64,000 nt of DNA from Naegleria gruberi (GCA_000004985.1 GG738847.1), one strand, 5' to 3'; shown: positions 5,899-62,000, counted from the stretch's first letter. The notes: a model not told the origin generated them from the letters alone. A program made the numbers and translations.

Positions 5899-7659
5899 AT
5901 GTCTTGGAGTGATATGGGTTTACCTCTCTCTTTCGGAGGAAAGAGAACACAATCCGGTACTGCAAAAAAATCAAACAATTCATCATCGGAAACAAAAAGT
6001 TTAATCACAATATCTAATACTAACGATTTAAATGGAAAAGCAATTTCAAAGAATTTAAAATCAAATCAAGAGGAAAAGAAGCCTATGGTTGTTAGTCAAG
6101 TTAGACATTTCGAAGATTTGGAAGAGGATACAAGTGATAATGATGATTTTTCTTCTGGTAATGATTTTGAAAAGATTCCACTGTCACAAACTGCAAAGAT
6201 GAAAGGACATAGAAAAGCAGTAACTGCTATAGCAATTGATACAAGTGGATCTAGATTAATTTCTGGTTCAAGTGATTATACACTCAAATTTTGGGACTTC
6301 CAAGGTATGGATGAATCACTTCAGTCGTACAAGGAAATTGATGAAATAACTGAGAGTGCTTCTTATGCGATTAAGCATTTATCATTTAGTAATAGTGGTG
6401 ACAAATTCATATTATCAGACAATTCGTTACAAGCAATTTTATATGATAGAGATGGTGGTCAACTAGGTAAATTCAAAAAGGGTGATACTTATATTGTGGA
6501 CATGACAAAAACCAATGGACATACAGCTTCTTGGACAGGTGTTCAGTGGAATCCTGATCAATCCAATAGACATGTCATTTCTAGTTCTATGGATACCACT
6601 GTCAGAGTGTGGGATATGGAAACTTTCACAACAAAGCAAATTACTGTATTCAAAGCAAGAAATAGTAAGGGACTCAAAACCCCTGTAACTTCATGTTGTT
6701 ACAGCAATGATGGAAAATTAATTACTGCTGGATGCTTGGATGGATCAATACAAATTTGGAAAAATAATGGCAACCCAAACAAGTGTGACATGAGTTTTAG
6801 AGAAAAGGATGAAAGAGGATCTAGAATAACTAGTATTGTTTTCCATAATGATGATCAAACACTTGTAACAAGAGATGAGGACAATTTGAAAATATTTGAT
6901 ATCAGAAACTTTAATTCTCCCATTTCAGTTCTTGATAATCTGCCAAATCTTTTGGAAAATTCAAATTGTGTCTTTTCTCCTCTCAACGATATTGTTGTCA
7001 CAGTTGTGAGTAGCATATCACCACAGGATAAGGGATCCATTGTATTTTATGATTGGAAGAATGATAAAGTTGTAGATACTGTACATATGAATGATGGAAT
7101 TAGTCCAGTGCAAGTGAGATGGCATCCAATTATTAATCAAATATTTGTTGCTGGCACAGATAGTTCTATCACTGGATTTTATGATAAAGAAGTGAGCTTG
7201 AGAGGATTGGTTACAAGTACATCAAAAACATTCAAGAAGAAGAATATTGATCAAGCCGAAATGGTACAGCCACAAATTATTGCACCTTATGCACTTTCAC
7301 AGAATAAGGAACCAAAAAAGAAGGGAAGAAAAGATCCTGTTAGCTCTCAAAAACCAAAAGATCCACCTCCAAAAGGTCCTGGATTTGGTGGTAGAATTAA
7401 TGACAGCTTTACTCATTTCTTAATGAAAGGAATGGGTGCCATTAATCAATTTAATGAACATGAAAATGCTCGTGATGCCATTCTGAAACATGCAGCAGAG
7501 GCAGAGAAAAATCCACTATTTATTTCACCAGCATACTCCAAAACTCAACCAAATGCAATCTTTGATTATGGTGAAGATGACGAAAGTGAAGAAGATCAAG
7601 AGCAACCACAAGATGAAAATGATCCAGAAAGTAGATTCAAAAAGAGAAAACTAGATTAA
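5899..7659 (+). CDS. WD40-repeat protein, WDR70 family
   Basis: ATG in an aaaaaaaATG context. N-terminus GLPLSFGGKR.., WD repeats (LISGSSDYTLKFWDF..) and a basic C-terminus ending KKRKLD fit the WDR70 architecture. Confidence 0.7.
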   Translation: MSWSDMGLPLSFGGKRTQSGTAKKSNNSSSETKSLITISNTNDLNGKAISKNLKSNQEEKKPMVVSQVRHFEDLEEDTSDNDDFSSGNDFEKIPLSQTAKMKGHRKAVTAIAIDTSGSRLISGSSDYTLKFWDFQGMDESLQSYKEIDEITESASYAIKHLSFSNSGDKFILSDNSLQAILYDRDGGQLGKFKKGDTYIVDMTKTNGHTASWTGVQWNPDQSNRHVISSSMDTTVRVWDMETFTTKQITVFKARNSKGLKTPVTSCCYSNDGKLITAGCLDGSIQIWKNNGNPNKCDMSFREKDERGSRITSIVFHNDDQTLVTRDEDNLKIFDIRNFNSPISVLDNLPNLLENSNCVFSPLNDIVVTVVSSISPQDKGSIVFYDWKNDKVVDTVHMNDGISPVQVRWHPIINQIFVAGTDSSITGFYDKEVSLRGLVTSTSKTFKKKNIDQAEMVQPQIIAPYALSQNKEPKKKGRKDPVSSQKPKDPPPKGPGFGGRINDSFTHFLMKGMGAINQFNEHENARDAILKHAAEAEKNPLFISPAYSKTQPNAIFDYGEDDESEEDQEQPQDENDPESRFKKRKLD

Positions 7660-13534: not shown

Positions 13535-13607
13535 TCCCCCTTAGCTCAGTCGGTAGAGCGTCAGACTGTTAATCTGCAGGTCGGTGGTTCGAGCCCACCA
13601 GGGGGAG
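13535..13607 (+). tRNA. tRNA-Asn (anticodon GUU)
   Basis: 7-bp acceptor stem TCCCCCT/AGGGGGA, D-arm GCTCAGTCGGTAGAGC, anticodon loop CTGTTAA, T-arm GGTGGTTCGAGCCCACC, discriminator G. A T-run (GTTTTTGT) follows downstream. Confidence 0.9.
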
Positions 13608-26994: not shown

Positions 26995-27157
26995 ATAAAT
27001 AATTTATTTATTATTTACAGCACCAAAACTTTGAGTTTAATAATGTTAAGGTTAGTAATTTAACCTGTAATTTTGAAAATATTGATATTAACATTAATAA
27101 ACTCAAAGTAATAGACTAATCGTAAATTATTGTTCCAAATTAAAACTTACAAAAAAA

Positions 27158-28264
27158 ATGACTGATGAAAATCCACCACTCATCATTGATAATGGTTCCT
27201 CTCTAATGAAAGCTGGTTTTTCTGGTGATGAAGCTCCACTTGCAGTCTTTCCCACAGTAACTTCACAACAAAAAGTAGCACCCATCCTCCTTTCAATGGG
27301 CTCTATCACAACATACGTTGGAGATAATGCATTGTGTAGGAGGGGTATTAATGTTTACAAATATCCAATTGATCGTGGATTGATTACTGATTGGTATCAT
27401 ATGGAAAAGATATGGCATCATACATTTTATAATGAGTTAAGAGTTGCTCCTGAAGAACATGAAGTATTATTGATGGGAATGCCATTAAATTCAAAGGAAA
27501 CGAAAGCGAAAATGGCACAAATCATGTTTGAAAGTTTTAAGGTGCAAGGTTTGTGTTTGGCAAATCAATGTGCCATGTCAATATTTGCAAGTGGTAGAAT
27601 GACAGGTGTAGTATTGGGATCAGGAGATGGCGTCACTAATTCAGTACCTATTTATGAAGGATATGCCCTATCACATGCCACCAATAGATTGGAATTAGGA
27701 GGCAAAGACCTGACAGATTATTTGAAGAAAATGTTAATGGAACGAGGATATAATTTCAACACCATGGGCGAAACTGCAATAGTCATGGATATGAAGGAAA
27801 AAACTGGTTATGTTGCCAGTAATTTTGTGGAAGAAACAGCGAAAGAAAGTTTATATGAATTACCAGATGGAAATGTAATTTCACTTGGAAGGGAAAGATT
27901 CAAAACTACTGAGATATTATTTCAACCAAATCTTATTGGAATGGAGGTTGCTGGAATTCATGAAAATATTTTCACTTCTATTAGAAAGTCAGATTTGGAT
28001 ATTAGAAAGGAATTGTATTCGAATATTGTTCTTTCAGGAGGATCGACATTGTTTAATGGAATTGTTGAACGATTGAATAATGAGTTGAGAGAAATATCTC
28101 CCTCCACAATGAAAATTCGAATAACAGCACCACCAGAAAGAAAGTACAGTACATGGATTGGTGGCAGTATTTTCTCCCAATTGCCAACTTTCCAATCAAC
28201 TTGCATAACAGCACAGGAATATGCAGATGTTGGTAGTGCAATTGTTCATAGGAAATGTTTCTAG
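27158..28264 (+). CDS. divergent actin-like protein (about 50% identical to conventional actin by eye)
   Basis: Full-length actin fold: IIDNGSS..KAGFSGDEAP, DSGDGVTNSVPIYEGY, LSGGSTLF, KIRITAPPERKYSTWIGGSI, and the canonical C-terminus IVHRKCF. aaaaaaaATG start. Confidence 0.85.
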   Translation: MTDENPPLIIDNGSSLMKAGFSGDEAPLAVFPTVTSQQKVAPILLSMGSITTYVGDNALCRRGINVYKYPIDRGLITDWYHMEKIWHHTFYNELRVAPEEHEVLLMGMPLNSKETKAKMAQIMFESFKVQGLCLANQCAMSIFASGRMTGVVLGSGDGVTNSVPIYEGYALSHATNRLELGGKDLTDYLKKMLMERGYNFNTMGETAIVMDMKEKTGYVASNFVEETAKESLYELPDGNVISLGRERFKTTEILFQPNLIGMEVAGIHENIFTSIRKSDLDIRKELYSNIVLSGGSTLFNGIVERLNNELREISPSTMKIRITAPPERKYSTWIGGSIFSQLPTFQSTCITAQEYADVGSAIVHRKCF

Positions 28265-28353: not shown

Positions 28354-28471
28354 GGCTACGGCCATATCACGATGAATGCACCTCATCCCGTCCGATTTGA
28401 GAAGTTAAGCATCGTCGAGCCACATCAGTACTGAGGTTGGAGACAACTTGGGAACCTGTGGTGCTGTAGTC
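28354..28471 (+). rRNA. 5S ribosomal RNA (copy 1) with a downstream T6 terminator
   Basis: GGCTACGGCCATATCACG...CATCCCGTCCGATTTGAGAAGTTAAGC...GTACTGAGG...GGGAACCTGTGGTGCTGTAGTC followed by TTTTTT. The 3' end can pair with the 5' end (helix I). Upstream at 28290-28350 is a degenerate partial copy of the 5S 5' end (cggttatatcacgatgaa). Confidence 0.9.
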
Positions 28472-28854
28472 TTTTTTGAATCTGTGAATACTGTAACAAT
28501 ATTTGAAGACTCAAACTCGAAATTTGAAGGTTTATTGATCAACCACAAGTTTCTATTTCTAAATAGATAAAATTCAAAGGTGATATATAGATGGTCACGT
28601 AGCAAGCTTTTCTAAACAACAAACTTACTGAACCAACAATCAATAGATTCGTTGCCTTCACTGTTCATACAGTCAAAGACTGTAGCGGGATAGTCGCCAT
28701 ATTCCTGGCAGGCTTCCCGTCTTAATTGTTTTACAAATGAAATAACAAACTTAATTTTATGGAGACTCACACTTTATTCTAATGTTAAATAATAATTAAA
28801 AGCAAAATTGTTTCAAAAATTTAGCCTTTTTAAAGAAATTGATTTCTGTTTCAA

Positions 28855-31711: not shown

Positions 31712-31784
31712 TGCCGACACCAGGGATCGAACCAGGGACCTTAAGATCTTCAGTCTTACGCTCTCCCAACTGAGCTATGTCGGC
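31712..31784 (-). tRNA. tRNA-Phe (anticodon GAA)
   Basis: The reverse complement reads GCCGACATAGCTCAGTTGGGAGAGCGTAAGACTGAAGATCTTAAGGTCCCTGGTTCGATCCCTGGTGTCGGCA, nearly identical to eukaryotic tRNA-Phe. A T-run follows the 3' end. Track ORF 31650..31835 overlapping it is spurious. Confidence 0.95.
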
Positions 31785-33086: not shown

Positions 33087-33204
33087 GGCTACGGCCATAT
33101 CACGATTCATGCACCTCATCCCGTCCGATTTGAGAAGTTAAGCATCGTCGAGCCACATCAGTACTGAGGTTGGAGACAACTTGGGAACCTGTGGTGCTGT
33201 AGTC
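33087..33204 (+). rRNA. 5S ribosomal RNA (copy 2) with a downstream T5 terminator
   Basis: Differs from copy 1 only at about 2 positions (gattcat versus gatgaat). Shares the upstream motif gtattaaggaag with the copy-1 locus. Confidence 0.9.
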
Positions 33205-33265
33205 TTTTTACAAAATTTGAAAAACAAGGTAAATTAATTTGGTAGTTTTGTATCTTATGTTTATT

Positions 33266-38559: not shown

Positions 38560-39125
38560 TAAATCCACTTAGGGTTATTCACGAATTGAAAATGGAATGG
38601 AATAGAATGGAATGAAATTTTTCTAAAAAATTCTATCCAAATAATTCCGTGTCCAGAATTTTTTTTTAGAATTGGTTGTGAACGTTTATTACATTATTCA
38701 AACGTTGTAAACGTTTTAACGTTTTTTAAATGTTTAAAACGTTAAATATGTTTTTCTTGTAATAAGGAAACCATTATTGGAGGCCTCCAATAATCATCCC
38801 TATATTGTGATGATATAGTTGAGCTTGCTTAATGTCCTTAATATCTGTGTGGGCGGGAATCAAACTGATTTTCCATTTCTTTCAAATGTGTAAATACGTT
38901 TTCAACATTTAGAACGTTTCAAACGTTTTTAACGTGTTTAATCAGTTTAGTTTAATAAATTCTTTTCAAAAATTAAAAATAACCACCAACGAAATAATTG
39001 GAATTTTTTCACGGAATCATTCTGAATTATTCTAAAAAATTCTGAAAAATTCCGTCAATTCCATCAATTCCATCAATTCCGTCAATTCTTTCCAATTCGT
39101 GAATAACCCTAACTAGTAATTGATT
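38560..39125. mobile_element. 565-bp inverted-repeat element (MITE-like)
   Basis: Imperfect terminal inverted repeats of about 90 bp, each starting TTAGGGTTATTCACGAATTG and containing GGAAT/ATTCC satellite-like runs. Inside are two subterminal arrays of the palindromic hexamer AACGTT and a perfect 22-bp central palindrome, attattggagg|cctccaataat, at 38773..38794. No ORF. It sits between two diverging genes. Confidence 0.5.
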
Positions 39126-40126: not shown

Positions 40127-40197
40127 ACGGCCAATGCAAAACGACAAAATTATTGACAAAAAAAATAAAATAAAAGGAATATGGTTATGAACCAGAT

Positions 40198-41556
40198 TTA
40201 TTGCTTCTTATTAGCCTTCATTCTTTCCCTTAATTTATTCTTAGAATCGGATGAATTCATTTGAGCTTTTTGTTGTTCCATTCTCAATTTCTCGTAATGT
40301 TTTACTGTCCAGTCACCTCCTTCAATTGAGTAAAAGTCCATTGGATAGATTGGTCTCCATTCAGTGGCTGTTAAAGCTACCTCAGCTTCATAGGCAGTCA
40401 GTAATGGTTTATCAAAGAAGTGACCCCAATCGATTGAGAGACGAGGACAAGCAATTTGAATCCAACACTCAACATCGTGGAATAGTTGAAGTTTGCTTGG
40501 GAAAATTTCACTCAAAAGGAGAGAAACATATGGAATATTCTTTTCGTTCAGTAATCGTTCAATAGTTTCAAGAATTTTTGGAGAACCTTGTCTACCCAAA
40601 GTTCCTAGAATTACACCAAACTTTTTGGCTTTCTTTGCCTTTTCAATGGCATCTTGTCTGATGGAAAATAATTGTGGATGATCATAGTGTTCCTCTGTGA
40701 ATTTCTTTCCATATGGATCATATTTGTAATATTTCAATTCTGGATTTTGAATCATGACACTTTCCAAATGGAATCTACCATCTCCCAAATAAACCATAGT
40801 TTCAATTTGATGATTTTTAGCTAAATCTTTTGGACTTGTGCAACCCAGAACTTCACCAGGTGACAATGGTTTAACTTGAGGAATAAATACAGGAGTTGTG
40901 AAATGTTTGTCCAATTCTGCCTTGGCAGTTCTTAAACTTGAAACAAATTGAATAGTTGCAACCATAGCCATTTTGGTTTCTTTTGGAAAGTTGTTAATCA
41001 TTGATTGAACAAAATAATTAATATCAATTTGAATATCCACAAAAACGTATAGAATATTCTTAATGCAACAATCACTGACAGGAACAAGACAACTGTGAGC
41101 ATAATGCACCATGAAATCAGCACCCAAAGCTCTAGCAGTAAGATCATCTATACAGCATGCTCCGTATGTGACATCTCCCATAATTACTGTACTTGTTTCT
41201 GGACAAAATCTTTCAATAATATCACTAATCACACAACTAAACAAGAGCAATCCTTCAGGAAATTGCAAAGCAACTCTCTTTGGTTTAATTTGTTGAATTC
41301 TATGAATAGTTTTATGAATTTCAAAATTATAATTTGTTGGAAGTGTTTCCTTGATGAGTCTATTCAATTCTTCGTTTTCTAAAATTGAAGCAGGAACACT
41401 TTGTTGTAATTTAATACTAGATGAAAGATTAACTCCTGCATATGGATTTGATTGTTGTTGTTGTTCAGGAGTTTGTCCAATATTGTTGTTATTGTTATTA
41501 CTATCTTCCGATGATGAAGAAGAAACGGCAACAAGACTTGTTTCTTGATTTTCCAT
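40198..41556 (-). CDS. DPH1: diphthamide biosynthesis protein 1 (DPH1)
   Basis: [35 protein letters not shown], typical of DPH1/DPH2 radical-SAM-like family members. Length and C-terminus fit DPH1. aaaaaaaATG start. PolyN/Q N-terminus. Confidence 0.85.
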
Positions 41557-41757
41557 TTTTTTTTATTCGTTTCAAAATTTTTATTAATTTACAATTTTAA
41601 ATTATTATATACTAGTCATAATAATAATATTAAATTATTATCACTTCTTCATGGTTATTAATTTTTTAATTATAATTCTATATGGAGGACTTGATAGTTT
41701 TCTATTTTTCATTGTTATTATTTTAATAAAATTACTTGATGATTATTTACATATAAA

Positions 41758-44295: not shown

Positions 44296-47200
44296 TTATT
44301 GTTGATCTTGTTGCATGGATGGTGGTTGATAGACTTCATCTTGTTGCAATAACAATTCGTCGTCTTCATCTGATTCACTTTCTTCACCATCTTCGAGAAC
44401 TTGAATTTCACTTTCTTGTTGGAAGACATAGTCACCAGGCTTCTTTCTTTCACTCTTCAATTTCTTCAACTTTCTCTTACCCTTTCTAATGTAAACTCTA
44501 GTGAGAGTCTTGATTCTTTCGACAGCTTGTGGATCTCTCATAACCAAACCAACGAATGATAATACCAAGAAAATGATAGTGATAGCAATCAAGATAATTG
44601 GTGAAATATAGTAGGCCTTATAGGAGAAACCATAATTTTCCAAAGCAGTAGCAACATTTTGATTACTTTCTTGATACTTTCTAATTTCAACAGTGTACAT
44701 TAATTCGACAGCCCATCTCACTGGAGAAGAACAAACCAAAACCAATGTATACCATTCCTTAGACATGGTACGAACTGTTGGTTGAACACCACCCAACAAG
44801 GCACACAAAATAATGTACATTACACCAACAAATTCAGCATGAGTTCTTTGAACGAAAACTGAAATGAAATAGCCAAGAGAACTGAAAACAATTTCGAATA
44901 ATAAGAAGAGTCCATAGTATGTGTAAAATTCAGCTTCAGGATTAACGAGGATATACCAGAAAGTAACAAAGACCAATGGATAGATCAACAAGGAAGGAAT
45001 TTCACCAGTCAATTTACCAAGGAAGTAACTCATCTTGTTGATACCATTCTGAGCTTCACGTCTATAGAGTTCCTTATCAGCACCAAAACATTTGAGTGAA
45101 GATTGCATAGCAGCAATGGCAAGAGCAGAAACTGTAACAATACTCATTGGTGCAATCTTATCAATTCTTGGCAATGAACATTGATTACTAATAAATGTTG
45201 GACACAACTTTTGAAGAGTTGATGAAAGAGGACCAATAAAGTCCATGTTAAAGTAGAAACCTCCAATAATTACAGCAAGAGCAAAGTGGAAGAAGAAATC
45301 AAAGAAGACACCCTTGTAGTGACGACTCAATTGAAGCAAAGCACGAAGAGAGAATAAGAGATATTGACCCAAGAACGCAATTGGCTTTCTTTGTCTTTCC
45401 TTAGCAACTTCACTGCCCAACAAAACTTGTTGTGGATCAATAACAGAAGCACCAACTTCTTCATCATCTTCTTGTTCTTGTTCTGATTGTTGAGTTTCAT
45501 TACCATTTCTTGATTTGAGCCATTTCTTTTCATTTTCTTCCTTCTTCAAGTCCCACAAGTGCAACAAACGTTCTGGTTCAAAGTTTGGATCACCAGGTCT
45601 TTCAACATTACCCAAACAAACATCAACAAAAAAGTCTGGAGGATTTTCATAGTTTGGACATTTGAAGCCAATTTCTTCAAAGAATCTCAAAGCATCCTTG
45701 GTTGGACCATTGTAAACAATGCCACCATTCTTACCCATGATAATACAATCGTCAAAGAGGAGGAATACATCATTTCTTGGTCTGAGCATGGTAGAAACAA
45801 CTGTAGTACCACTTTCAGCAGCCAACTTGAAGGCCTTACACAAGAATTTCTTTCTTTCGAGTGGAATTTCATCGAATGGATTATCGACAAATAAACAAAC
45901 TGGATCAGCAACCATTTCAAGAGCCATGTTAACAAAGACTCTGAGTTCTTCATCGAGACCGTGCTTCTTTGATTTACCAATTGTATCATACATAAAGTTT
46001 TCAATACCCAAAACCTTACATGTCTTTTCAACACGTCTACCAACTTGACTGTATGTATAATAACTTGGCAAACGAGAGTGACCAGCAAATCTCAACAATT
46101 CGTGAACCTTCAATTCCTTAGCCATATCAAGTTGCTTTGGGGCAAAGCTGATAATATTTCTGAATTCGTGCGGATCCTTAATTTGTTCATTAATCATAAT
46201 TTTACCATGAACGAAACCCAAGTGATGTCTACCAGAAAGAGTATTGAGCAATGCAGAAGTTGCTTCAGAATCAACACCAATAATACATGTAGTTCTTCCG
46301 TGATAGACACGACCAGTGACACCTTCGAAAATAACTTCTTCACTCTTCTTTCTGATATATGACAAATCCTCAAAGGCATAATCAATTGTAAAGTTCTTCT
46401 TTGAGAATGGTGGTTCATTGACGAGAGAACCAGTACTATCATAATTGAATTGTTCATTTCCTTGAATAAAGTTGGCAATATTAATACCAATGTTGGCAAG
46501 ACCATTTTGTCCTGAGATTTCTTGGTCTTGTTTAATCTTCTTTTGCTTCATCTTCTTCTTCTTGTAAGAGGCAGTGACACATCTGACAACAACGAAAGTG
46601 ACCAAAACGAGGAAGACAACAACGAACATTAACAAGATACCCAAATAGAAGGATTGTTGCTTGGCAGAACCTTCTGGACAATAGGAGAACCATTGACAAC
46701 GTTTAGGATAAGTAGAGCCAGCAGCACAGTGATAACCAGATGGACACAACAACATTGAGTTGGTATTAGGGCAATAATAACCAGCAGTACAAGCAAGTGG
46801 TTCCTTAGTACCTCTTGGGCAATAATAACCATCTTCACACAAGACTTTGCTTGACAAGGTTGGACAATAGTAACCTTCTGGACAATAGTGCTCATCACTA
46901 CCATAAGTACCAGTTGGACAGTATTGAGTTCTGTTACCAATTTGTTCCAAACATGGAGTTGGAGTCATAGAGTATGGAGTTTCACAATAGTTCAATGCAG
47001 GACAAGCATTTACGAGAGTAGTGCCTGTAGTGTCAAGTCCTTGAGTAGCTAATGGACAATATTGACCATTTCTACAAGTGTATAATTGACTTCTAGTTTT
47101 TCTTGCAAGATAACCTGGTGGTACTGGAATAGACATCAAAGGGTTCAAACAAATTTGACCATCAGGACATCTTTGCTCAGTAGAGGAACCTTCAATTCCA

Positions 47201-49403
47201 CAAGTTGTTTCAAATGTTGAGGAAGGTGAACAAGCAGTAGGTGCAGTCATGGCCGAATCTTTACATTTGAATCCAACAGGACAAGGTCTTCTACGACCTT
47301 CGTTATTGGTTGGACAGTAAAATCCTGGTTCACATTTAAAGACCATTGTTGGTCTAATTGTGTGATAACCAGCAGAAATAGAAACAGTATTGGCGTAACC
47401 TTCAGCAAGAGTTTTCCAGAATCACCATATCTTGGACAAGTCCAACCTCCATTACACATTGAGAAGTAACCAATAAAATCGAATGCAGTATACTTGGTTG
47501 GATATTTCTTACAAGCTTCAGTAAATTTAGTCAATGAAGATGGAGGATTTGAAGAAGCCAACAAGGTGCAAATATCTTGCAATCTTATTCTGGCATCAAT
47601 ATCAAAGGCCTTTCTAGAAAGGACAGCAAAGATGTGTTGTGCATTTTCAGAAACATAAATGTCATTAATTTTACCATCACTGTTCAATAATGCAGTTTGT
47701 TGCAATGTAAATAAGCTTGAACTAGAAGTGGAAGCAGAAGTGTCAGTACAAGCATACTCTTGGAAGGAAAATACTTCAATACTTTCTCTTGTGGCAATGT
47801 TGATGGTGTGATAAAATGTTGAATAGGCATCAGTGATAGCAGTGTCACTTGTTTTGTACATTCCAATAACCATCTTTGAAGGAACAGCTGATGTGGTTTT
47901 CAAATCTGATTCCTTATTAGGTCTGTTAGTACAGGTTCCACTCTTTGAGTATTGAGGTTTGGTAGTTGATGTATAAGAAGTTGAGCATGTTGTGTCAGCT
48001 GGTATACCAACGGCCTTGTATATGCCAGCTGGGTCAGAACTAATATCAGTTACATCCTGACTTGCCATTTCTGGAAGGTTAAAGACAAATAATCTTGGGC
48101 CGAAAGCATTTGCAGAGGCTGTAGTTGAAGCAACACCAACAGCAACCCAAACAGATTGGGAAGTCTTAGCAAGAGTACCATAACATTCAGTAAATGCACT
48201 CACAGAATAAATACTTTCACCAGAGACACCATGTGTATAAATGATTGAGGTCTTCTTTGTTAAGTCAACAGGTGAGTCATTTGGCGTACCAACGAGTTGA
48301 ATCAAATTGACTTGTGACTTGGATTGAATTAAAAGAAGAGGTCTACTGGCTTTAACTGAATTACAGTCAACCTTTGATGAATATGTTGGGTCAGCACCAA
48401 ATTGTCCATGAGCAAAACCGAAAATCTTTCTTTCCTCAGTTTGGTCAGCAAATGCCCATTTATAAAGTGTAGAACCCTTGTAAATGATAATACCATTGGT
48501 AGAAGTAGAAGTACCATATGAGAGAACAGCCATATGAGTTGCAGTTCCAAGAGTATCAATGTAGGCAATTGTTTGCAAATCTTGCACAAATTCGCTTGAG
48601 GACAATTTGGTTGTTGTATCAATGGTAAGAGCAATAGTTTTAGAAGATGAAACTGTGAGAGTACCAGTAGTATCCAATTTAAGAACCAATAATGTTTGAG
48701 TTGACAAGGTAACATAAATTGTTGCCTCAGTAGAGCTAGTTCTATAGACAGCCATCTTACTTGGTTTATCTGTTAAAGCAGTTTTAGCATCAAGTACTTG
48801 ATAAGAGTAGGCCAATTGTTCAGTAGTCATATCAAGAACAAGCAAATGTCTATTGGTCAATACTAGTAAATATTGTTTGGCACCATCAGCTGACATTTCC
48901 AAAGGTTTAGCAGCTCTAACAAAGAAACAACGATTGTTTTCGGATTGTGATGATTGATCAGTAGTGGTAACATTTCCTCCAGAATAGTCTTCCTTATAAA
49001 TTTTAACAATATTATCAACATCTTGATCTTTCACACAAATCATGTTATTTTCAGTTGATGTAATTGGTGTCTTGTCTGTTATTTTGGTATATAAACATTG
49101 TGCACCAGTGGCATCACAATTAAAAATGTCAGGATCTCTAAAAGTGATTGGTTGACTTGCTCTAAAGTTATTATATGTACACCATGATGGTCTTGAAGTG
49201 GATAAAGATGGATCACATAATCCAAAGGCTGATTTAACTTGTTCACCAGATAATGCAGCACACCAGTCTGGAGGTGTGGCAGCAAGAGTTGAAGCACAAC
49301 TCAAAGTAATCATCAACAAGATGGAGACGATTAAATATCGAACAGCAACACGTTGTTGTGCTTGTCCTTTCAACAATGGTCTATTATCATTACGTATCAT
49401 CAT
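44296..49403 (-). CDS. giant secreted/type I membrane protein: large extracellular domain plus Cys-rich GYYCP/EGF-like repeats plus a degenerate ABCG-type module, with an apparent 1-nt frameshift at 47412-47415
   Basis: ORF 47247..49403 has a signal peptide (..LLMITLSCASTLAATP) and a 700-aa Thr/Ser-rich ectodomain. ORF 44296..47346 continues in a different frame with CxxC/GYYCP repeats, a TM helix followed by KKKKMKQKK, an ABC NBD with degenerate Walker A (IIGVDSEATSALLNTLSGR), degenerate signature and Walker B (LFVDNPFDEIP), and a six-helix ABCG-type TMD. The two frames would fuse if the run GGAAAAC (minus strand) had one more A. Confidence 0.7.
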
Positions 49404-50060
49404 TGTTGATCGCGCAACGATATTGTTGTTGTTGTTTGTTATTAAATATTATTCGAAACTCTTCTCAAGAGGAGATGCAAACAAGTTAATTGTTATCAAT
49501 TTCTTTTAGAAAGTGGAGAGAGGAATGGATAAATAATAGCTAGCAGCAAATACACAACAATTATTCAGTGATGAAAGCTTTGTAAATTTTTTTTTCTTGT
49601 TGATTGTTGTGATGGGTCAATCAGATGTCTGTGAATGTTTAGACTTTGGGTTGCTGGTTTATTTCACAATAGGTTCTCATGTTGGATGTTGCGAAAGTGA
49701 TCTTGATATTCGGTATGTATTGGAGACATAAGATATTAGAAACTTCACAGACCTATAATATTTAATAGCATTTTATACTTTTCTTTGAACAATTGAAACA
49801 TGAGGGTTATTGCTTCCGATTAGATCAAATTTATCTTCTTCGTATCAATGATGTTGTGGAATTAGGAATGTTGAAAGACAGAGGAAGAAATTATTGAATG
49901 AGCACCACTACACTGCGAGAGTCAAACAACAAGAATCGATTCATCATTGGGAGAACTAGCCAAGTTACGCTGCCGCGACTCTAAGGTTTGGTTAGGAAAC
50001 AATTTTTTAAGAGCGCTGAAATTTCAAGACTTCCTTAGTTTTCCTCACCAATGTTAAAAA

Positions 50061-50072
50061 TTTGGCGGGGAA
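50061..50072 (+). promoter_or_regulatory. E2F-like site TTTGGCGGGGAA, 80 bp upstream of the 50153 ORF
   Basis: Second copy of the same motif in the window, same orientation relative to the downstream gene. Confidence 0.45.
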
Positions 50073-50152
50073 TCCCAAGCTGTGTTGATTTCTTCATCGT
50101 CCAACATTGAGTTTGTTTACAATCCTCAATTTTAACCATAAAAAGAACCGTA

Positions 50153-51217
50153 ATGGAAAGACTCAACCGTAAACCACACACTCTCAAACACACACCACAA
50201 CAATTGTTTACGGTTGAGTCTTTCCATTACGAGAAATTGAGAAAGGAGAAGGAAGAACAAGTAGCATTGGAGCTAAAAAAGTTGAGAAAGGAAAAAAAAG
50301 AAAAGGAAAAGCTTGCACAAGAAAATAAGGAATTGCAAAGAAAACTTGAAATGATTGAAAGAGAAAAACTTTTTAAATTGGAGCAAGAGAATGAACTTTT
50401 AAAGAAGGCAACTCAAGAAGTAAAGCAAGAAGAAAAGAAGCAAGATAAACAAGAAACGAAATTGAAAAGAAAGGTTAATGATGAGGAAGTTTCCACACCA
50501 ACAAAGAAAACTAAAACAGATCCAACCATTACAGTTGTGAATAATTATTATGCTAGTCCATCAAGTATTGAAACAAAAAAGCAATCAAGCCCAAAGACTG
50601 TAGCTACTCAAGAGGGTTGCAAACACAAACGCATTTACGATCAATTTATTTACATCTACTGTTCAATGACAGGTCAGAAACCTAAAGAGTTTATTGACAA
50701 TCCAAAACAGGTTCAAGAATTTATTACCTTTTTTGAATTGAAATTGAAACCGAAAACACTTGTAAAGAACTTCAAACCTGATCCAAATATGACAACCTCT
50801 GACTATCAGGAAATTCTCTTCTACCTTCTCAACAGCATGAAGGGTAAAGAAGGTGAAAAGAAACAAGATGAAGTCATATCTGGTATTTTAAAGGGCAAGT
50901 TGAAAAGCAAATTTAACAAAGAGCTTGTGCCATACCTCATCGCTTTTGCCTATAACAATGTAGAAGGAAAAAAGCAATTACAAGGAAAAATGGAGGATTT
51001 TTTGAATGATAAAACTAAAGTTGATTCATTCATAAAGACATACAATCTCGATTTAAATCCAGAAACAAACAAACCATACCTTAAAGCTGAAACTATTTCC
51101 AATAACAAAGCTAAGATTATGGACATTGTAAAGAATCCAAAAACTCTGAAAGATTTGTTGAATGAAGCATGCAAGGAGGTGATTCAAAGATTCTTTGGCT
51201 CTCCAAAAACTAAATAG
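50153..51217 (+). CDS. hypothetical protein with a Lys/Glu-rich coiled-coil N-terminus and a conserved-looking C-terminal domain
   Basis: 354-aa ORF. The ATG lies inside a 26-bp perfect inverted repeat (see finding), so a start further downstream is possible. Confidence 0.5.
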   Translation: MERLNRKPHTLKHTPQQLFTVESFHYEKLRKEKEEQVALELKKLRKEKKEKEKLAQENKELQRKLEMIEREKLFKLEQENELLKKATQEVKQEEKKQDKQETKLKRKVNDEEVSTPTKKTKTDPTITVVNNYYASPSSIETKKQSSPKTVATQEGCKHKRIYDQFIYIYCSMTGQKPKEFIDNPKQVQEFITFFELKLKPKTLVKNFKPDPNMTTSDYQEILFYLLNSMKGKEGEKKQDEVISGILKGKLKSKFNKELVPYLIAFAYNNVEGKKQLQGKMEDFLNDKTKVDSFIKTYNLDLNPETNKPYLKAETISNNKAKIMDIVKNPKTLKDLLNEACKEVIQRFFGSPKTK

Positions 51218-51543: not shown

Positions 51544-54500
51544 TTATTGCGTTACGTTTATTGGGCCAGATACTTCTGGTGTTACTTCCTCCTTTTCCTC
51601 AATAGGAGTGGAATGTGAAGATAAGAATCCGAGAGCTTGTAAAGATTGATTATTCACATCTTCTTGTTTCAATTTTTTCTTCGCAAACGAGCCTCTTACA
51701 GTTGGACCTTCAACACTCTTATTTGGTCCAATTCCATACAAGTTTTCCAAGTTATCATAATTTTCATGTTGATCTGCTTCAGATTCTTGACGAACTGAAT
51801 CTTCATTATGCTTGCTATTTGAAATTTTACCAACTTCAAGAGATGTGTCTGTCTTTTCATCTGCTCCTTCTTCAGAATGATGAGAATCAGTTTCATATTG
51901 TAAAGGATCAACGTGATGCTTCCTCTTGAGCAGATAAGTTTGACATAAACCTTTTCCTTTTACATCAATTTTACGTTCTTCAAATTCCATTCCCATGTCA
52001 TGAACTCTTTCATAGGTAGCTCTAGAAATTTGAATTCTGCCTGGTTCACCAGTTGACTCCATTCTTGAGGCTGTATTAATGGTATCTCCCCACAAATCGT
52101 AGGCAAACTTTTTGATACCAATCACACCAGCAACAACTGGTCCTGTATGTAGACCCACACTATGTAGTTTCAATTTAAGAAAATTTCTTAGTAATTACAT
52201 TATAAATTATATACTTACCGAATATTAACATTAGTATTCTCACTTGAATTATATTCCTTGATTACTTGAAGTGTATCAATGGCAAATCTCAATGATCTCT
52301 CAGGGTGATCTGATTGAGCATTCAAGTTGATACCACCAACACAAAAATAGGCATCTCCAATAGTTTTAATCTTTTCCAAATTATACTTTTCAGTGAGTAC
52401 ATCAAAACCATTTACAATTGCATTCAACATCAACACAAGCTCAGAAGGATTCATTCCAGAGCTGATTTTTGTAAATCCAACCATATCTGAGAAGAAAACT
52501 GTTACATCATTGAACTTTTCAGCAATGAATGTTTCACCTCCCTTCAATCTTGAAGCAACACTCTCTGGCATAATATTTAACAATAATTGTTCAGATTTTT
52601 TCTTTTCTTCAGCTAATAACATATTTTGTTTCTTTTCAGGTGTGAAATCTTTAACAAAGCAACTAATAATTGGTTTCTTATTGGCTACACTAACTGAAAG
52701 ATTAACCTTGGATGGAAATTTACTTCCATTCTTTCTGACACATTCCACTTCAAGTGTTTCACCAAATGACTGGGTTGCATTTACCATTTGCTGGATAATT
52801 TGTGCTAGTTTTTGTCTATTTGGGTCCATAGGGTCAAATAGCTTGGTCAATTGCTCGCCCAAAACATCACTATTATTCATACCATACATCTTTTGAGCAA
52901 CAGGATTGAAAAGTTCAATATCACCTTGTGAATTACATAAAATGGCTCCATCAACTGCAGAATTCAAAATTGCCCTCACCTTACCATCTCCACCACCATC
53001 TTTTTCCTTGCTTTTTTCTGATGAAGAGGCCCTAGATTTAGACGAGAGATCATTGAAAAGTACAAATTGTTTAAGAGCATCATTGGAATCAATATACTCC
53101 ACAGGTAAGTAATTGAGTAAACTTCTTAATTGTTGAATCTGATCCCAAAAATCTCTTATTAACACATATGCAAAATATGATAGTGATATTAATGCAATGT
53201 ATCCTATAACAACTGCAATTATGGATAATGTAAAACTTGGAGTCGATGCATATGTAGAATATAAATCAAAAATGTCTATTATTCTATCCATAAGGGCATT
53301 TGACATTTCACTTCCCTTAAGCAAGGTCAAGAATAAATTGTCTATAGCGTAATTACTGTAATATACATCTTCGTTCAATCTTAATGACACAGTACTAATT
53401 TCTGTAACGAGCTCATCCAAATTGGTGCAATAAAATGTGGAAACGTTGGTACAATTTGTAATTGGAGAAATAAGAATATCAATATCCTCATAAGTATTCA
53501 TAAATCTACCACCATATCTTAATACTTCCCATGAAGAAGCAATAGTTCCAAATAGTGATTTCATTTGAACGTGGTAAGTGCTAAGGTCTGATTGTGAGAG
53601 CAAACGATCATCATTCAAACTACTCTTGGAAGTATATCTCATAAAACTAAATAATTCTGTCATACGGTAGGCTGCTCTGTTTGTATTTCTGAAAATTTCA
53701 ACTCCAGAAGTAACGTATTTAATCGCTAAACTTTCAGTATTAGAAATAATTTGCATATCAACGAAAAGCATTGTAATGCAAAGAACAGTTACAATGATAC
53801 TTGACACAACAACGAGTGAAATGGTTGTCTGAGGTTTTGAAATAATTCCATTCTCTTTGATATCCATTTCTTCATCAGACTTCTTGTCGAGACCTTGAAA
53901 TATTTTACCAACTTGATCCTTGGGTAAGGTTGTGGCAATAAACTTAATAGATGATCTCAATGACCTCAAATGTACTAACAATATCATAACCACAATTGCT
54001 GCACAAACACCATATACAACAACTGCAGCTACGTAGAAGGCAATAAATTGAATGTTCATATTTTGAACAGATTCAGAATTTCTACGCAAAAATAAATCAC
54101 AATAAGCATCAAAAGCTGAGCTACCTCCATTTCTATTTGTCCATAAAAACATGAAATCACCAGATGTTATTGTAGTATTAAAGCTATTTGCTTCCTTCTT
54201 CAAATAAGTCTTGGCATATTTGATTAAACTATCAGTAATTTCTGAAATGGAAGCATTTTTGGATTGAATGTAATCGGAAGGAATTGTTGAATCATTACTG
54301 TAATAGAGAACTGGTGTAACAAGAGTATATATAGGATTGGTATAGTCTGCTATGGATTCAGAAGACATTGTACCAGAGGCCTCAGCCAATTTTAACTCAT
54401 CCAAAAGTCCCTTATACTTTTCCATTCTCTCTAATTTGTCTTGGAAAAAGTCTGTAACATTAACCACATCATGTAAACCAGAGGATATAAGTTCATTCTT

Positions 54501-56953
54501 ATAGGTTGGATAGAGTATCATAAAGTTTTGGAATACTCTAATTTCCCTCAAAAGCAATCTAGGTACAGCAGATGGCATGCAAACATAGTAGGAATTCTTA
54601 ATGTTGCTAGAGAGCTGACCAGCAAAGGAAACTGACATACCAATACCAATAGATACAATACACATTGAAAGAAAAGATAGAATCAGGAAAAAGAATAAAT
54701 AAATATTGTGTGTGTGTTGTCTGTTAAGAGAAACTCTAAACTGGTATTCCTTCTTTTGGTTGCCTACAATATTTTCAATGCCACTGAATTCATCAATTCT
54801 ATCTTCGTAGGAATGACTAATGCCACTTCTTGCTCCAGATGTTTTTTGTACATCAACGCTTGCTTGATTAGTAAATCCTTCACCAAAGTAATTACTTTCT
54901 GGCAGTACTCTATTATTTTTTCCAATCTTTTTTGGAACTGAGGTCTTTTTTGTTTCTTCTTCTTCAATATAGTTGGCTTCTTCATACATTTCATATGCTT
55001 GATCTCTTTCAAATTTGACTTCTTCTAAGAATTTTGCATATGTTCTCAATACAGTCTTATTGTTACCATAGTTTGACATGAGGCCCTTAAGAGTAATTCC
55101 AACTTCCCTTGTGATGGAAGTAATTTGTTTGTTGATACTTTCTACCTTCTCGAACGAAATATTATCATTAATAAATTCTTTAAAGAAGGACTTGTGGAGT
55201 GAGGAAATAATTTGTTGTTTCTTTTCAACTTTTTGTAAAATATGTTTAATTTCTAGCAATCCTTTGCCACTGTCAAGAATTGTCTCAATTTCTTTAGTTC
55301 TCTCTACAATAGTAAATCTTTGTAACAGAGAGGGTTGATTTTTCTTTGCCTGAATAAATTTGTTAGATAAATGAAAATACTTTAAATACGTACTTTTTCT
55401 AAAATTGCAAGTGATTTTTGTTGTCCTGTTTCAAAAAAGTTACCACAAATAATGGAGGCTGCAATTAATAAATCAACATTTTGGTAAGTTTTTTGATTGG
55501 CAACACCCTTAATAAAACATTTGGAAAGTTCCAAATCACTGAGATTACCCAAAGTAGAGGTAGATCCTTTCTTCATACACCATTTTAAGAAGAGGAATAG
55601 TCTTCTTGAGCGATTGGTTTCTTCAATTTCTTGTAAGATTTTGATAGACTCCTTTTCTAGAATGTATTTAGGATTCATAATGTCATCATTACTCAAATTG
55701 TCTAATCCACGTTCCAAGTGATTCATAAATATTCCTCTCAGATCCTTATTAATGTATCTAGTCCATAAATCCATGCACAACCAACCAATGAAGGAAAATA
55801 TTATCATTACACCAATAGTCATGCCTAACAGTCCTAAACCAAGACCATACTCATTTTGAGTATTCACATATGTGGAAACAACACCACACAAAGAACCTCC
55901 AAGAGTGGCACAAACAAAACCAAAGTAAACAGCATTCTCCCATCTTCTATAAAAAGGCATTGAAAATAAAAAGAAAATAGTGATGCAAAAGCTAGCTACC
56001 ACAAAGTAAACTGCTTGAATTACCACAAATTGATCTCCTACAACATTAATCAACAAATAGTAAATTTGATAGCTTAGAACGCTTAAAAAATAGAGATGAG
56101 CATCAAATGTTAAGAAGGGAGTTTCACTCCTTGGATTTGCATCTGTTGTTGTGTAAAAACCAACAAAGGTTGTGAAAATTGTGAGCACATATGACAAAAG
56201 ACCAATTATAATGAAAGCCAAATTGGTGCCCGAATAACAGGCCACGTCAGGAAATCTATTCAAAACTTGTTCAGCTGTTGTTGAAGAAGTGACCAGCACT
56301 GCTGACGAATAATTACAATTCAAAAACCCCAACATGAGCCAACTGATTGGCAAACTTGTTAAAGAGATTGTTACATTCAATATTCTAGTAATGACTTTGA
56401 TTTTGGGCCAATACTTGCTCATTCTGTAGATAGATCTGTAGGCAATTATTAAAATAATGACTTGAAGTAGCTGTATGGCAAATATAATACCTGCAATAAT
56501 GACCGCTGCAGTGTAAGGTAAATGTTCAAAACCAAATGTTAGAGGATAATTAACAGCTCTTGCTATCCACCTTCCATACTCGCCAAAGTTATAACTAGGT
56601 TGAATGGCAATCACTAATGTTGCCCATATGAAATATAGTCTGATGAGTAGAGTTTTGATATATTCATTTCTTCCAACTAATTCTTGTCTGGTTTGTAAAT
56701 TAAGAAGGAACATGAAGGATCTCTCCTCTAACTGAGTAACAATAGACTCATTATAGTAATCTTCCAGTGATGATGTGGTACTACCCACTTGTGAAGCATT
56801 CACAACACTACCTGCTGCATTGGCATCATTAGGTTGTCTTGTTGAAGTAATATAACTTCGCTTATCTATTGAGGCAACATTGGTAGAAAAGTTATAATCT
56901 AGCACACTTCCGGATTCACCATCTGAACCAATAATACTTCCTCTCCTACTCAT
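51544..56953 (-). CDS. membrane adenylyl/guanylyl cyclase with N-terminal polytopic domain, second TM cluster, PAS domain and one class III cyclase catalytic domain; three exons (55394..56953, 52219..55349, 51544..52159)
   Basis: Exon 1 (MSRRGSIIG.., at least 8 TM helices) ends ..ILEK|GTACGT. A 44-nt intron (55350..55393, branch ATCTAAC, ..TTCAG) continues in frame into AKKNQPSLLQRF..LLEIKHIL... Exon 2 has TM helices, PAS (..GAILCNSQGDIELFNP..) and the cyclase core (..FSDMVGFT..KIKTIGDAYFCVGG..). It ends NIR|GTAAGT, and a 59-nt intron (52160..52218, TACTAAG..CATAG) joins ..VGLHTGPVVAGVIG..DLWGDTINTASRMES. All phases checked. Confidence 0.8.
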
Positions 56954-59013: not shown

Positions 59014-62000
59014 TTAAAGTTCAGAATCATCATCACCAATCTTTTTCCTCACTGTTGACTTCTTTAACGAGACACCACCACCAAGAATGTTTGTACCAGC
59101 TTTTGGATCGTCCTTCTTGGCAGTTGATGCTGTGAGACGACTTGTTGTACTTGCATTTTTGAGATCTTGTTTAAGTTTTTCCTTCTTAAGCTTTTCTTCT
59201 TCTGCCTTCTTTTTCTTTTCGTCGGCCTTTTGTTGTTGAATATTCTTGTCGGCAGCTTGTTTAAATTGTTGAACAAAGGCATCAATCATTTGGAAGAATT
59301 TGTCTGGTTCTTTCATAAGATCGTCCTTAGTTTCATTGTACAATTCTGCGAGCTCTGTTAATTGATTCTTCATAGCTTCCATATCTTCCTTGATCTTGTT
59401 AATGGTATTGTCAACCTTCTCACAGAATGGTTGCATTTTTTCAACAAATTTGTCTCCATCAAGTTGTTCTTCAATGGCTTCTCTAATTTGAGTTTGTAAA
59501 ATGTTTTGTCCTTTTTTAAGTTCTTCCAAATCATCTTCCAAAGAGGAAATGTTCACTCTGGTGGCAGCTTGAACGTGTTCTAATTCTGTATCAAAACCAG
59601 CAACTTCTGGTTCGTTGTCTTGGACAAACTTGACAATATATTGGAGGAGAGAACTCTTACCGTCACCAGTCTTAGTATCATTCAACTTGGCAAGTGATTT
59701 GAGTTTAAAACCATAACTGATCTTATTCTTTTGTTTACCATTCAAAAAGTTACCAATTGTAAGAATAATACCCAACAATCTGATGAAATTCTTAGAGTTT
59801 TGCATTTCTTTACAGGCTAATGTAAGATTTTGAATATCAGGTCTAATTTTACCACTGATATCAGGGAATTTAAATTTAAATTCCCACGCATCAAGTCTTC
59901 CTTTGAGATTTGGAATTCCATCCATGACTTTGAAGAATTTATCAGGTTCTGCTAATTCATCCATTGGTCCATCATATGTATTGACAGTATCAATTTCTTC
60001 TCTCTCAGGAGCAATTTGCTTAATTGTACCAACATTATCAGAAGTAACAACAGCTTCATCGAGAGCAATAATAGCTTTCTTCAATGATTCATAACTTGTA
60101 CCTCTCAATGAACCTAATTGAAGGGAAACAGCATAACTACGTTTTGCATCCAACATTGATTTAACTTCCTTCTTCTTTTCTGTTGGCTTAACTTCTTTGT
60201 TTGGATCTTCCTTTTTCTTTGTAGAGAAACATGATGTCAAATGATCCAAATCTATTTCCTCAATAATGGAATTTGTCTTATTTGCAATACCTTTTGTCAT
60301 AAATACGGTATTGGTAAGTGTTGTCTTATTAATTTGGTCAAAGTGAACATTTCTGGTTGCTTCTTTTGGAGCTCTATCTGGAAGAACAGGTAATCCACCA
60401 CCAACAGCAGCACCTCTTCCAAAACCTCCTGGAACCATTGGTACACCTCTTCCAAAACCTGGTGGCATAGGAACACCCATACCAGGTGGCATTGGTACAC
60501 CTCCCATTCCTGGAGGCATTGGAACACCACCACCAGGAGGAGGAGGCACACCACCCATACCAGGAGGAGGAGGCACGCCTCCCATACCAGGTGGAGGATT
60601 GGAACACCTCCCATTCCTGGAGGCATTGGAATACCTGATCCTAAAGGAGGAGGAACACCGCCCATACCAGGTGGAGGAGGAACACCAAAACCTGGAGGAG
60701 GAGGAATACCACTATCCATTCCTGGAGGCATTGGAATACCTGATCCTGGAGGTGGTGGAATACCACCAAAACCTGGAGGAGGAGGAACAAATCCCATATC
60801 ACCACCAGGTGGAGGAGGAACAAATCCTGAGCCACCAGGAGGTGGAGGAACAAATCCAGTAGATCCAGGAGGTGGAGGCACGCCAAAATCACCACCAGGA
60901 GGTGGAGGCACAAATCCTGAGCTACCAGGTGGAAGTGGTACTGAACCACCAGGTGGAGGAGGAACGAATCCTGTCGAACCAGGTGGAGGAGGAACAGATC
61001 CAGTACTAGCTACTGTGCTAGTTGGAGGTACCTTAATAGGATTACTTTTGATAGATGAAATTTCTTTTTCGATGGCCGCAATAGTCTCCTTTAGCTTGGT
61101 TTCGTTTTCTTGATGCTTTTTGAGATCTGCTTGTAACTTTTCAATCTTTGATTTTCCTTCCTTTTCAACCTTTTCGGTTTCGTCTGTCACCTCCTTAACT
61201 TGATTTTTAACATCATCGTCTTGATCGCTTGAGTCTAATTTCTTTGTCCAAGTTTCCTTTTCCTCATGGAGCTTAATTTTTGATGCCACAGATTCAGAAA
61301 GTTCCTTACTGATTGTCTCTATTTCAACCTTCAGGTCTTCAATCTTCTTCTTGTTATCTTCACATTCTTTTTGAATATTTTGTTTCTCCGATTCGAGTTT
61401 TTGAACAAGTTCATTAATAATTTGCTCATTTTGTTGTCTTTCGTACTCAATTTTGTGTAACTTTTCATTCTGTTCTTGTTTAAATTTGTATTGAGAGTCT
61501 TCTAAATCAATAATTTGACTTTGGTTCAATCTGACTTGTTCTTCCAACTTGATTTCCAAATTAGTCCAATATTCTACATTTCCTGTTTCTCTGGACTGCT
61601 TTAAACTTCTCTTAACAAGTGCTAACATATTTTTCCAAGCTTCAAGAACGGTTTCTCTGTCCAAATCTCCATCTTTCATCTTTAAAACAATGTTAAGTAA
61701 TCTTTGAAGGATGTTAAGCATACTGGTCATGGATGCTTCGTTTAACATCAAGTTCAAAAGTTTTACAATTTCAGTTGGGTCACTTAAATCTTTAAGGACA
61801 GCGTGAGCATCTCCAAGATCACTGATTTTGTCTTCGAATCTTTCAATTTCTTTACTCAGATCCATTAATGTTTCTTCATTTTCATTACCTCCATAAGAAT
61901 TGGCAAGTTCATTCTTCAATTCATCTACTAACTCAACCATACCTAAATTTCTCATTTCCTTCTTGATGAGAGATTTACTACCTTCATCAGGTGCATTTGT

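Follow-up and report, generated by a model that had tools for sequence, protein, structure and literature searches.

A perfect 26-bp inverted repeat encloses the annotated start codon of a predicted orphan gene in Naegleria gruberi and is a candidate product of template switching

Introduction

How does a perfect inverted repeat come to lie across the start codon of a protein-coding gene, and what would it mean for translation of the mRNA that carries it? This question is raised by a locus in a 64,000-nucleotide (nt) stretch of the Naegleria gruberi genome (GCA_000004985.1, GG738847.1), hereafter termed the window, within which all positions are counted from the first letter. An original prediction, made from the DNA alone, had singled out the repeat and its potential to form a very stable hairpin. 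We have assessed the geometry and folding energy of the repeat, the gene in which it resides, the choice of start codon, and the explanations that could account for its presence, i.e., a copying event at the DNA level, a mobile element, a selected RNA structure, a promoter palindrome, or an artefact of assembly.

Results

The inverted repeat and its predicted fold

The left arm (50149-50174, plus strand) reads CGTAATGGAAAGACTCAACCGTAAAC and comprises a 4-nt leader (CGTA), the ATG at 50153-50155, codons 2 to 7, and the first base of codon 8. It is followed by a 31-nt loop or spacer (50175-50205, plus strand; CACACACTCTCAAACACACACCACAACAATT), which provides the last two bases of codon 8, codons 9 to 17, and the first two bases of codon 18 (peptide PHTLKHTPQQL), and which is A/C-rich and devoid of G (14 A, 13 C, 4 T, 0 G). 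The right arm (50206-50231, plus strand; GTTTACGGTTGAGTCTTTCCATTACG) is the exact reverse complement of the left arm, lies in the same codon register, and encodes FTVESFHY. Both the repeat search and the fold paired the two arms, 31 nt apart, at 26 of 26 positions (100% complementary), exclusively through Watson-Crick pairs and with no G-U pair, bulge, or mismatch; extension of the stem stops where C50148 stands opposite A50232. These data confirm the original prediction of a perfect 26-bp inverted repeat with a 31-nt CA-rich loop at 50149-50231, as well as its claim that the repeat encloses the annotated start codon, because the left arm includes the ATG at 50153-50155, which corresponds to residue 1 of the deposited protein XP_002682301.1.

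Given the base composition of the window, perfect inverted repeats of at least 26 nt with a spacer of at most 100 nt are expected 2e-8 times per window and 1e-5 times per genome, the genome of N. gruberi reportedly being ~41 Mb in size according to its genome paper. In an exhaustive scan of the window, all remaining perfect inverted repeats measured 12 nt or less, and 20 block-shuffles of the window peaked at 10-14 nt. A pattern search tolerating up to three mismatches returned the two arm sites alone in the 64-kb window (versus 0.00 expected). Chance as the origin of the 26-nt repeat is ruled out by the expected numbers together with the shuffles. Thus, the repeat is real, unique within the window, and far above chance.

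RNA folding of 50130-50250 yielded a single clean stem-loop with a minimum free energy (MFE) of -41.67 kcal/mol, close to the value of about -45 kcal/mol that had been estimated earlier by eye. Dinucleotide shuffles averaged -15.0 kcal/mol (z = -8.75), and none of the 200 was equally stable; the single-stranded DNA fold reached -28.6 kcal/mol (z = -9.8). When a 120-nt fold was slid along both strands of the window (mean -18.3, standard deviation 6.3 kcal/mol), the hairpin locus lay ~4 standard deviations below the mean and ranked as the fourth most stable fold, the top three being GC-rich coding regions with Pro/Gly repeats.

Several other structured features occur in the window. GC-rich GGAGG/CCAGGAGG repeat arrays are situated inside long minus-strand ORFs at 2986-3494 and 60497-60996 and have 19-22-nt words in common; they give the most stable predicted folds of the window, and on the minus strand they would read as Pro/Gly-rich coding repeats. 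At 27028-27109, where a short intergenic stretch separates two genes on the same strand (24163-26994 and 27158-28264), lies an inverted repeat of 34 nt that is 82% complementary and has a spacer of 14 nt. The window also harbors two tRNA genes (13535-13607, plus strand, and 31712-31784, minus strand) with equal Rfam scores of 67.9 bits, as well as two 5S rRNA genes on the plus strand (28354-28472 and 33087-33205; Rfam 105 and 100 bits), ~4.7 kb apart.

The host gene and its surroundings

The repeat sits at the 5' end of a single-exon open reading frame (ORF) of 354 aa (50153-51217, plus strand; NAEGRDRAFT_62371, XP_002682301.1, EFC49557.1, D2V0Q0), which is 100% identical over its full length to a "predicted protein" deposited for N. 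gruberi. The protein retrieved its self-match alone, both in a word-indexed search of 5.8 billion clusters and in an exhaustive HMMER search of 1.84 billion representatives; a Pfam search gave no match, and in the literature the gene is mentioned in no paper under any accession. As judged from these comparisons, NAEGRDRAFT_62371 is a predicted strict orphan, restricted to its species. Its codon-usage log-likelihood (+0.35 bits per codon in frame versus -0.78 and -0.84 off frame) lies inside the span of 0.18-0.58 bits per codon seen for the window's 24 other long ORFs. The ORF accordingly looks like a real gene on its coding statistics; 354 open codons in DNA of 33% GC would be unexpected by chance. 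A single-sequence AlphaFold2 model (mean pLDDT 53) confidently predicted a long, K/E-rich, coiled-coil-like helix at residues 15-109; its remaining parts, a linker and a helical C-terminal half, were of low confidence.

On one side of the gene, the minus strand carries an ABC-2/ABCG-type transporter (44296-47346) and a 718-aa ORF without a Pfam match (47247-49403). The latter overlaps the 5' end of the transporter ORF by 100 nt (47247-47346), and both are Cys-rich near the junction; they may be exons of one gene with a short intron between them. On the other side lies a PAS-adenylate/guanylate cyclase that is split by a short intron (51544-55259, minus strand).

Codon register of the two arms

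The starts of the two arms are 57 nt apart, a multiple of 3, so that the arms share their codon register and FTVESFH is the antisense-codon image of MERLNRK. More specifically, codons 1-7 (ATG GAA AGA CTC AAC CGT AAA) encode MERLNRK, and codons 19-25 (TTT ACG GTT GAG TCT TTC CAT), which encode FTVESFH, are the reverse complements of codons 1-7 in reverse order; the CAT of His25 in the right arm is the complement of the start ATG. The earlier description of the encoded peptide as itself a palindrome is therefore wrong, as FTVESFH is a codon-by-codon reverse complement of MERLNRK. Since the right arm has no stop codon in two of its three frames, an ORF left open after copying is not improbable. 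The frame likewise stays open when the 31-nt loop (50175-50205) is inverted (MERLNRK-QLLWCVFESVW-FTVESFHY), so a spacer-inversion variant of the locus would still encode protein.

Choice of start codon and expected effect on translation

In the frame of the ORF, a TGA at 50108 is followed by no ATG before 50153, and the next in-frame ATG downstream is Met66 (codon 66; 50348-50350, plus strand), the sole alternative start if the hairpin prevents use of 50153. Nowhere in the gene is the coding signal stronger than between the hairpin and Met66 (codons 28-66; +0.58 bits per codon in frame versus -1.20 and -0.18), and in the AlphaFold2 model this stretch continues the same predicted long helix at high pLDDT. 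The hairpin segment itself (codons 1-27) is weakly coding-like (+0.13 versus -0.28 and -0.55), 27 codons being too few to settle the matter. Because the coding signal reaches upstream of Met66 and the interval from the TGA at 50108 to 50153 holds no ATG, 50153 appears to be the best start, and the only one that would explain the open, coding-like frame. Accordingly, the proposal that the true start is probably downstream is not supported: the next in-frame ATG is codon 66, yet codons 28-66 show a clear coding signal in frame. The ATG at 50153 has G at -3 and G at +4. Approximately one-third of the long ORFs in the window display a run of at least six A immediately before the ATG; upstream of 50153, an A-rich stretch (ATAAAAAGAA) stands off from the ATG by CCGTA. 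If 50153 is used, the mRNA must include both the loop and the right arm, since 79 of the 83 nt of the structure belong to the ATG or to sequence 3' of it.

These observations bear directly on the possibility that a dimeric factor binds the palindrome as part of the promoter, with transcription starting downstream of the repeat and the protein being made from Met66. The palindromic symmetry would suit such a site, as would the CAACCG/CGGTTG present in each arm, which we take to resemble a Myb-type core. However, a Met66 start leaves codons 28-66 untranslated despite their strong in-frame coding signal and their place in one continuous helix at high pLDDT, and 26-bp arms spaced 31 bp apart far exceed the sites of any dimeric factor known to us. 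We consider a promoter palindrome very unlikely.

A stem-bridged spliceosomal intron (GT at 50150 to AG at 50233) was also considered and rejected; it reads GTAATG...GAG, contains no branch-like motif, and its removal deletes the only ATG. The confirmed intron in the window reads GTAAGT...TACTAAG...TAG.

With 50153 as the start, enclosure of the AUG in a stem of about -42 kcal/mol would be expected to depress cap-dependent initiation, and more so with a short 5' untranslated region (UTR). According to the thresholds attributed to Kozak, structures of about -30 kcal/mol are reportedly tolerated and those of about -50 kcal/mol are said to be blocking. In yeast, 5' UTR hairpin modules, including one with a 27-bp stem, tune expression up to 100-fold according to folding energy, and the more structured the region around the start codon, the lower the translation efficiency tends to be (PMC7445769).

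Copy number and the possibility of a mobile element

We then weighed whether the 83-bp unit, with 26-bp terminal inverted repeats (TIRs) and a 31-bp core, is a MITE or foldback transposon, or a remnant of one, that landed at the 5' end of the gene, became part of the gene model, and donated its ATG. The arms do resemble perfect TIRs, 26 bp in length, and 83 bp falls at the small end of the MITE size range. The window contains a further foldback-like structure at 38569-39112, so palindromic elements may exist in this genome. However, no target-site duplication was found next to the arms: the immediate flanks read AAGAAC before the left arm and AGAAAT after the right arm, within the wider flanks ...AAAAAGAAC and AGAAATTGAG, and the AGAA common to them is offset by 1 nt and is a frequent word in the region. 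Nor was there a second or partial copy of the unit within the 64-kb window, either by pattern search with up to three mismatches or by short-word blastn. As the window is a small part of ~41 Mb, and a family of ~100 copies in 41 Mb would usually leave no second copy in 64 kb, this absence weighs weakly against a mobile element. In addition, the unit is in frame and supplies the sole usable start codon of a coding-like ORF, and its 27-aa peptide was present in no other protein in the full HMMER search. Taken together, we regard an origin as a mobile element as unlikely.

The palindrome at 38569-39112 is imperfect, spans ~545 bp, and has perfect 20-nt termini (TTAGGGTTATTCACGAATTG and its complement) around an AACGTT-rich center. 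Two divergent genes flank it, and it takes up much of the space between them; its sequence is unrelated to that of the hairpin, and it may be a foldback or MITE-like element. Our literature search found nothing on Naegleria MITEs or mapped transcription start sites.

Outside the window, the exact 22-mer of the arm had no match in viral contigs or in 185,579 prokaryote genomes, collections that are not expected to hold Naegleria. Among metagenomes, it had one match, in a JGI contig of ~56% GC that is bacterial (Ga0310690_10022956). There, 24 nt (6401-6424) are identical to the left arm (CGTAATGGAAAGACTCAACCGTAA) and form the start of a bacterial gene, MERLNRKTAPE..., and the locus shows no inverted repeat. 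Just upstream lies a 497-aa ORF, which we take to be uxaA-like, i.e., altronate-dehydratase-like. At least ~0.06 chance matches would be expected, as a rough estimate, from the size of the collection, and we judged this bacterial match to be a coincidence.

The possibility of a selected RNA element

A further explanation is that the hairpin has been selected at the RNA level, either as a device that throttles or switches translation by concealing the AUG until a helicase or some condition opens the stem, or as a Dicer substrate through which the 5' end of the mRNA gives rise to small RNAs. The stem is very stable and lies precisely over the AUG, and a perfect duplex of 26 bp is sufficiently long for Dicer, an enzyme for which a review has drawn the N. 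gruberi domain scheme (PMC10328071). Generic miRNA-precursor models also score its shape when Rfam thresholds are relaxed (mir-5879, 43.6 bits). However, on both strands these scores are far under the gathering cutoffs (43.6 versus 97; 35.8 versus 79), and the Rfam scan of the hairpin found no family at gathering, miRNA precursors included. None of the Rfam Cis-reg families scored on the hairpin with E up to 10; the sole Cis-reg row was Plastid-psbJ-2 at 50019-50159 on the minus strand (16.9 bits versus 65.6). Furthermore, pairing without a single G-U or mismatch suggests recency over long-term selection on the RNA, and in an orphan gene, function draws no backing from conservation or covariation. 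Selection for an RNA element thus strikes us as improbable. Nothing in these analyses marks the hairpin as a selected regulatory device or a mobile element.

A tract common to the right-arm boundary and a diphthamide-synthesis gene

Excluding repeat families and the 5S genes, the window contains two sporadic exact matches of at least 19 nt, one of which touches the hairpin (rough probability ~0.01). This match is part of a 23-nt tract across the boundary of the right arm (50225-50247, plus strand), CATTACGAGAAATTGAGAA[A]GGA, in which the bracketed position is variable (A/T) between the two sites; 22 of its 23 nt are identical to 40277-40299 on the minus strand, and both sites read HYEKLR in frame. 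The second site is located 10 kb away in the C-terminal tail of a diphthamide-synthesis (Dph) gene (40198-41556, minus strand) and falls outside the Pfam domain of that gene, which ends at residue 403. Similarity between 50225-50247 and 40277-40299 extends no further. The identity may be due to chance, helped by AGAAATTGAGA, a common word in the region, or to a small ectopic copy. The tract runs from the right arm into the sequence downstream, a hint that the right arm may be continuous with older sequence, as would fit a left arm that is the copy.

The tract is present in a metagenome strain, too. A contig of ENA metagenome ERZ929261 (run ERR1078381) encodes the exact 452-aa Dph protein and has 99.3% nucleotide identity to 40174-41614 of the window, but diverges from it completely 24 nt past the Dph stop codon. 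By this comparison, public data include another N. gruberi-like strain or haplotype, whose downstream region differs. Exact-protein look-ups of the full ORF, of its Met66 form, and of the neighboring cyclase exon found no second-strain copy, and a JGI metagenome scan with the 354-aa protein found no relative.

Since the repeat is a single locus in a single assembly, we also considered a chimeric inverted join, produced during assembly or cloning of the reference. Against such an artefact, the repeat leaves the reading frame uninterrupted and in register, its size is small, and it lies in the interior of a 941-kb scaffold; moreover, palindromes are more often lost than gained during cloning in E. 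coli. We deem it extremely unlikely.

Discussion

Of the explanations considered, we favor a young, DNA-level inverted duplication of the template-switch kind, for which we see about an even chance of being correct. Template switching can generate perfect inverted repeats and complete stems in one event, e.g., a 28-base event, and its event types include inverted repeats with or without inversion of the spacer (PMC10710096, PMC5453318, PMC8794818). We favor this origin because perfect pairing follows automatically from copying, whereas selection at the RNA level does not require perfect pairing, particularly when each arm is protein-coding as well. The locus shows an exact reverse complement within ~100 nt (26/26, with a 31-nt spacer), as membership among template-switch products demands. 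By eye, there was no microhomology at the inner switch points in either direction. The original prediction had listed a "DNA-level element," by which it meant a transposon or a protein-binding site, among its possibilities; the DNA level is the option that we favor, in the form of inverted copying, but we found no evidence for a transposon or a protein-binding site, there being neither a target-site duplication nor a second copy in the window.

The sequence of events that we propose is as follows. At the 5' end of the orphan gene, a single stretch of 26 nt would have been copied as its reverse complement 31 nt from itself, most likely by a short-range replication template switch in a single event, although fold-back repair synthesis would yield the same product. 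The copy would have landed in the same codon register and without a stop in that frame, leaving the ORF open and the change tolerated; our guess is that an orphan gene with normal codon usage might tolerate such a rewriting of its N-terminus. In the mRNA, pairing between the arms would then create a 26-bp stem (about -42 kcal/mol) that buries the AUG and covers codons 1-26 (78 nt). Weaker loading of the 43S complex or weaker recognition of the AUG would result in low translation, with some leaky use of Met66 possible.

With regard to age, zero substitutions at 52 arm positions place the event at less than ~0.058 substitutions per site (95%), unless the arms have otherwise been kept identical; their identity could instead be maintained by selection or by conversion between the arms. 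As a scale for this bound, the ERZ929261 strain differs from the window by 0.7%.

Indications as to which arm is the original point both ways. The need for a start codon, together with the ordinary -3/+4 context of the ATG, points to the left arm, and the 22/23-nt tract common to the tail of the Dph gene points to the right arm as the older sequence. Should the left arm be the copy, a template switch would have written the reverse complement of the coding ...TTC CAT TAC G... upstream and thereby turned the CAT of a His codon into the opening ATG. We rate this version as quite unlikely, but its implications would be considerable: one mutation would have made both the start codon and the N-terminus of a species-restricted protein, the same mutation would have made a hairpin that throttles that protein or feeds Dicer, and the locus would be a concrete case of template switching aiding the birth or remodeling of a coding gene.

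More generally, if a template switch is confirmed, irrespective of which arm is the copy, the locus would offer a clean natural example, in a deep-branching protist, of one replication error rewriting the first 27 codons of a gene and, by the same error, placing the AUG under a stem of about -42 kcal/mol. Such a case would bear on how orphan genes gain and lose expression and on the origin of perfect RNA stems. For the NAEGRDRAFT_62371 gene model, the translation start deserves experimental checking.

Four known systems invite comparison. Like MITEs and foldback transposons, the locus has perfect TIRs around a short, non-autonomous-looking core (83 bp in total), but it differs from them in having neither a target-site duplication nor a second copy in the window and in lying in frame within coding sequence. 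It has in common with precursors of miRNAs and hairpin siRNAs a long perfect stem and an unstructured loop, and its likeness to miRNA covariance models is weak and one of shape only; in contrast to such precursors, it reaches no Rfam threshold, and its location is the 5' end of an ORF, not an intron or a noncoding transcript. A third likeness is to inhibitory 5' hairpins in eukaryotic mRNAs, Kozak's engineered stems among them. Here, the 26-bp stem is close in length to the 27-bp yeast module (PMC7445769) and belongs to the energy class of strong repression, but the hairpin is natural, has a 31-nt loop, and is not wholly within the 5' UTR, as it holds the AUG and 26 codons of the ORF.

The fourth likeness is to hairpins made by template switching, as described in Ripley's quasi-palindrome correction, in the four-point model of Loytynoja and Goldman, and in the work of Monttinen and Loytynoja on RNA and miRNA stems. 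In those cases, as here, nearby sequences are exact reverse complements; the 26-nt arms and the 31-nt distance are within the documented range, and the stem is perfect without a target-site duplication. What sets the present locus apart is that its stem straddles a coding start and that both arms are translated in the same register; moreover, we infer the event rather than reconstruct it. The feature is statistically extreme, at one locus in one genome, and it is best filed as a further example of a known mutation product, i.e., a template-switch-type hairpin over the start of an orphan gene.
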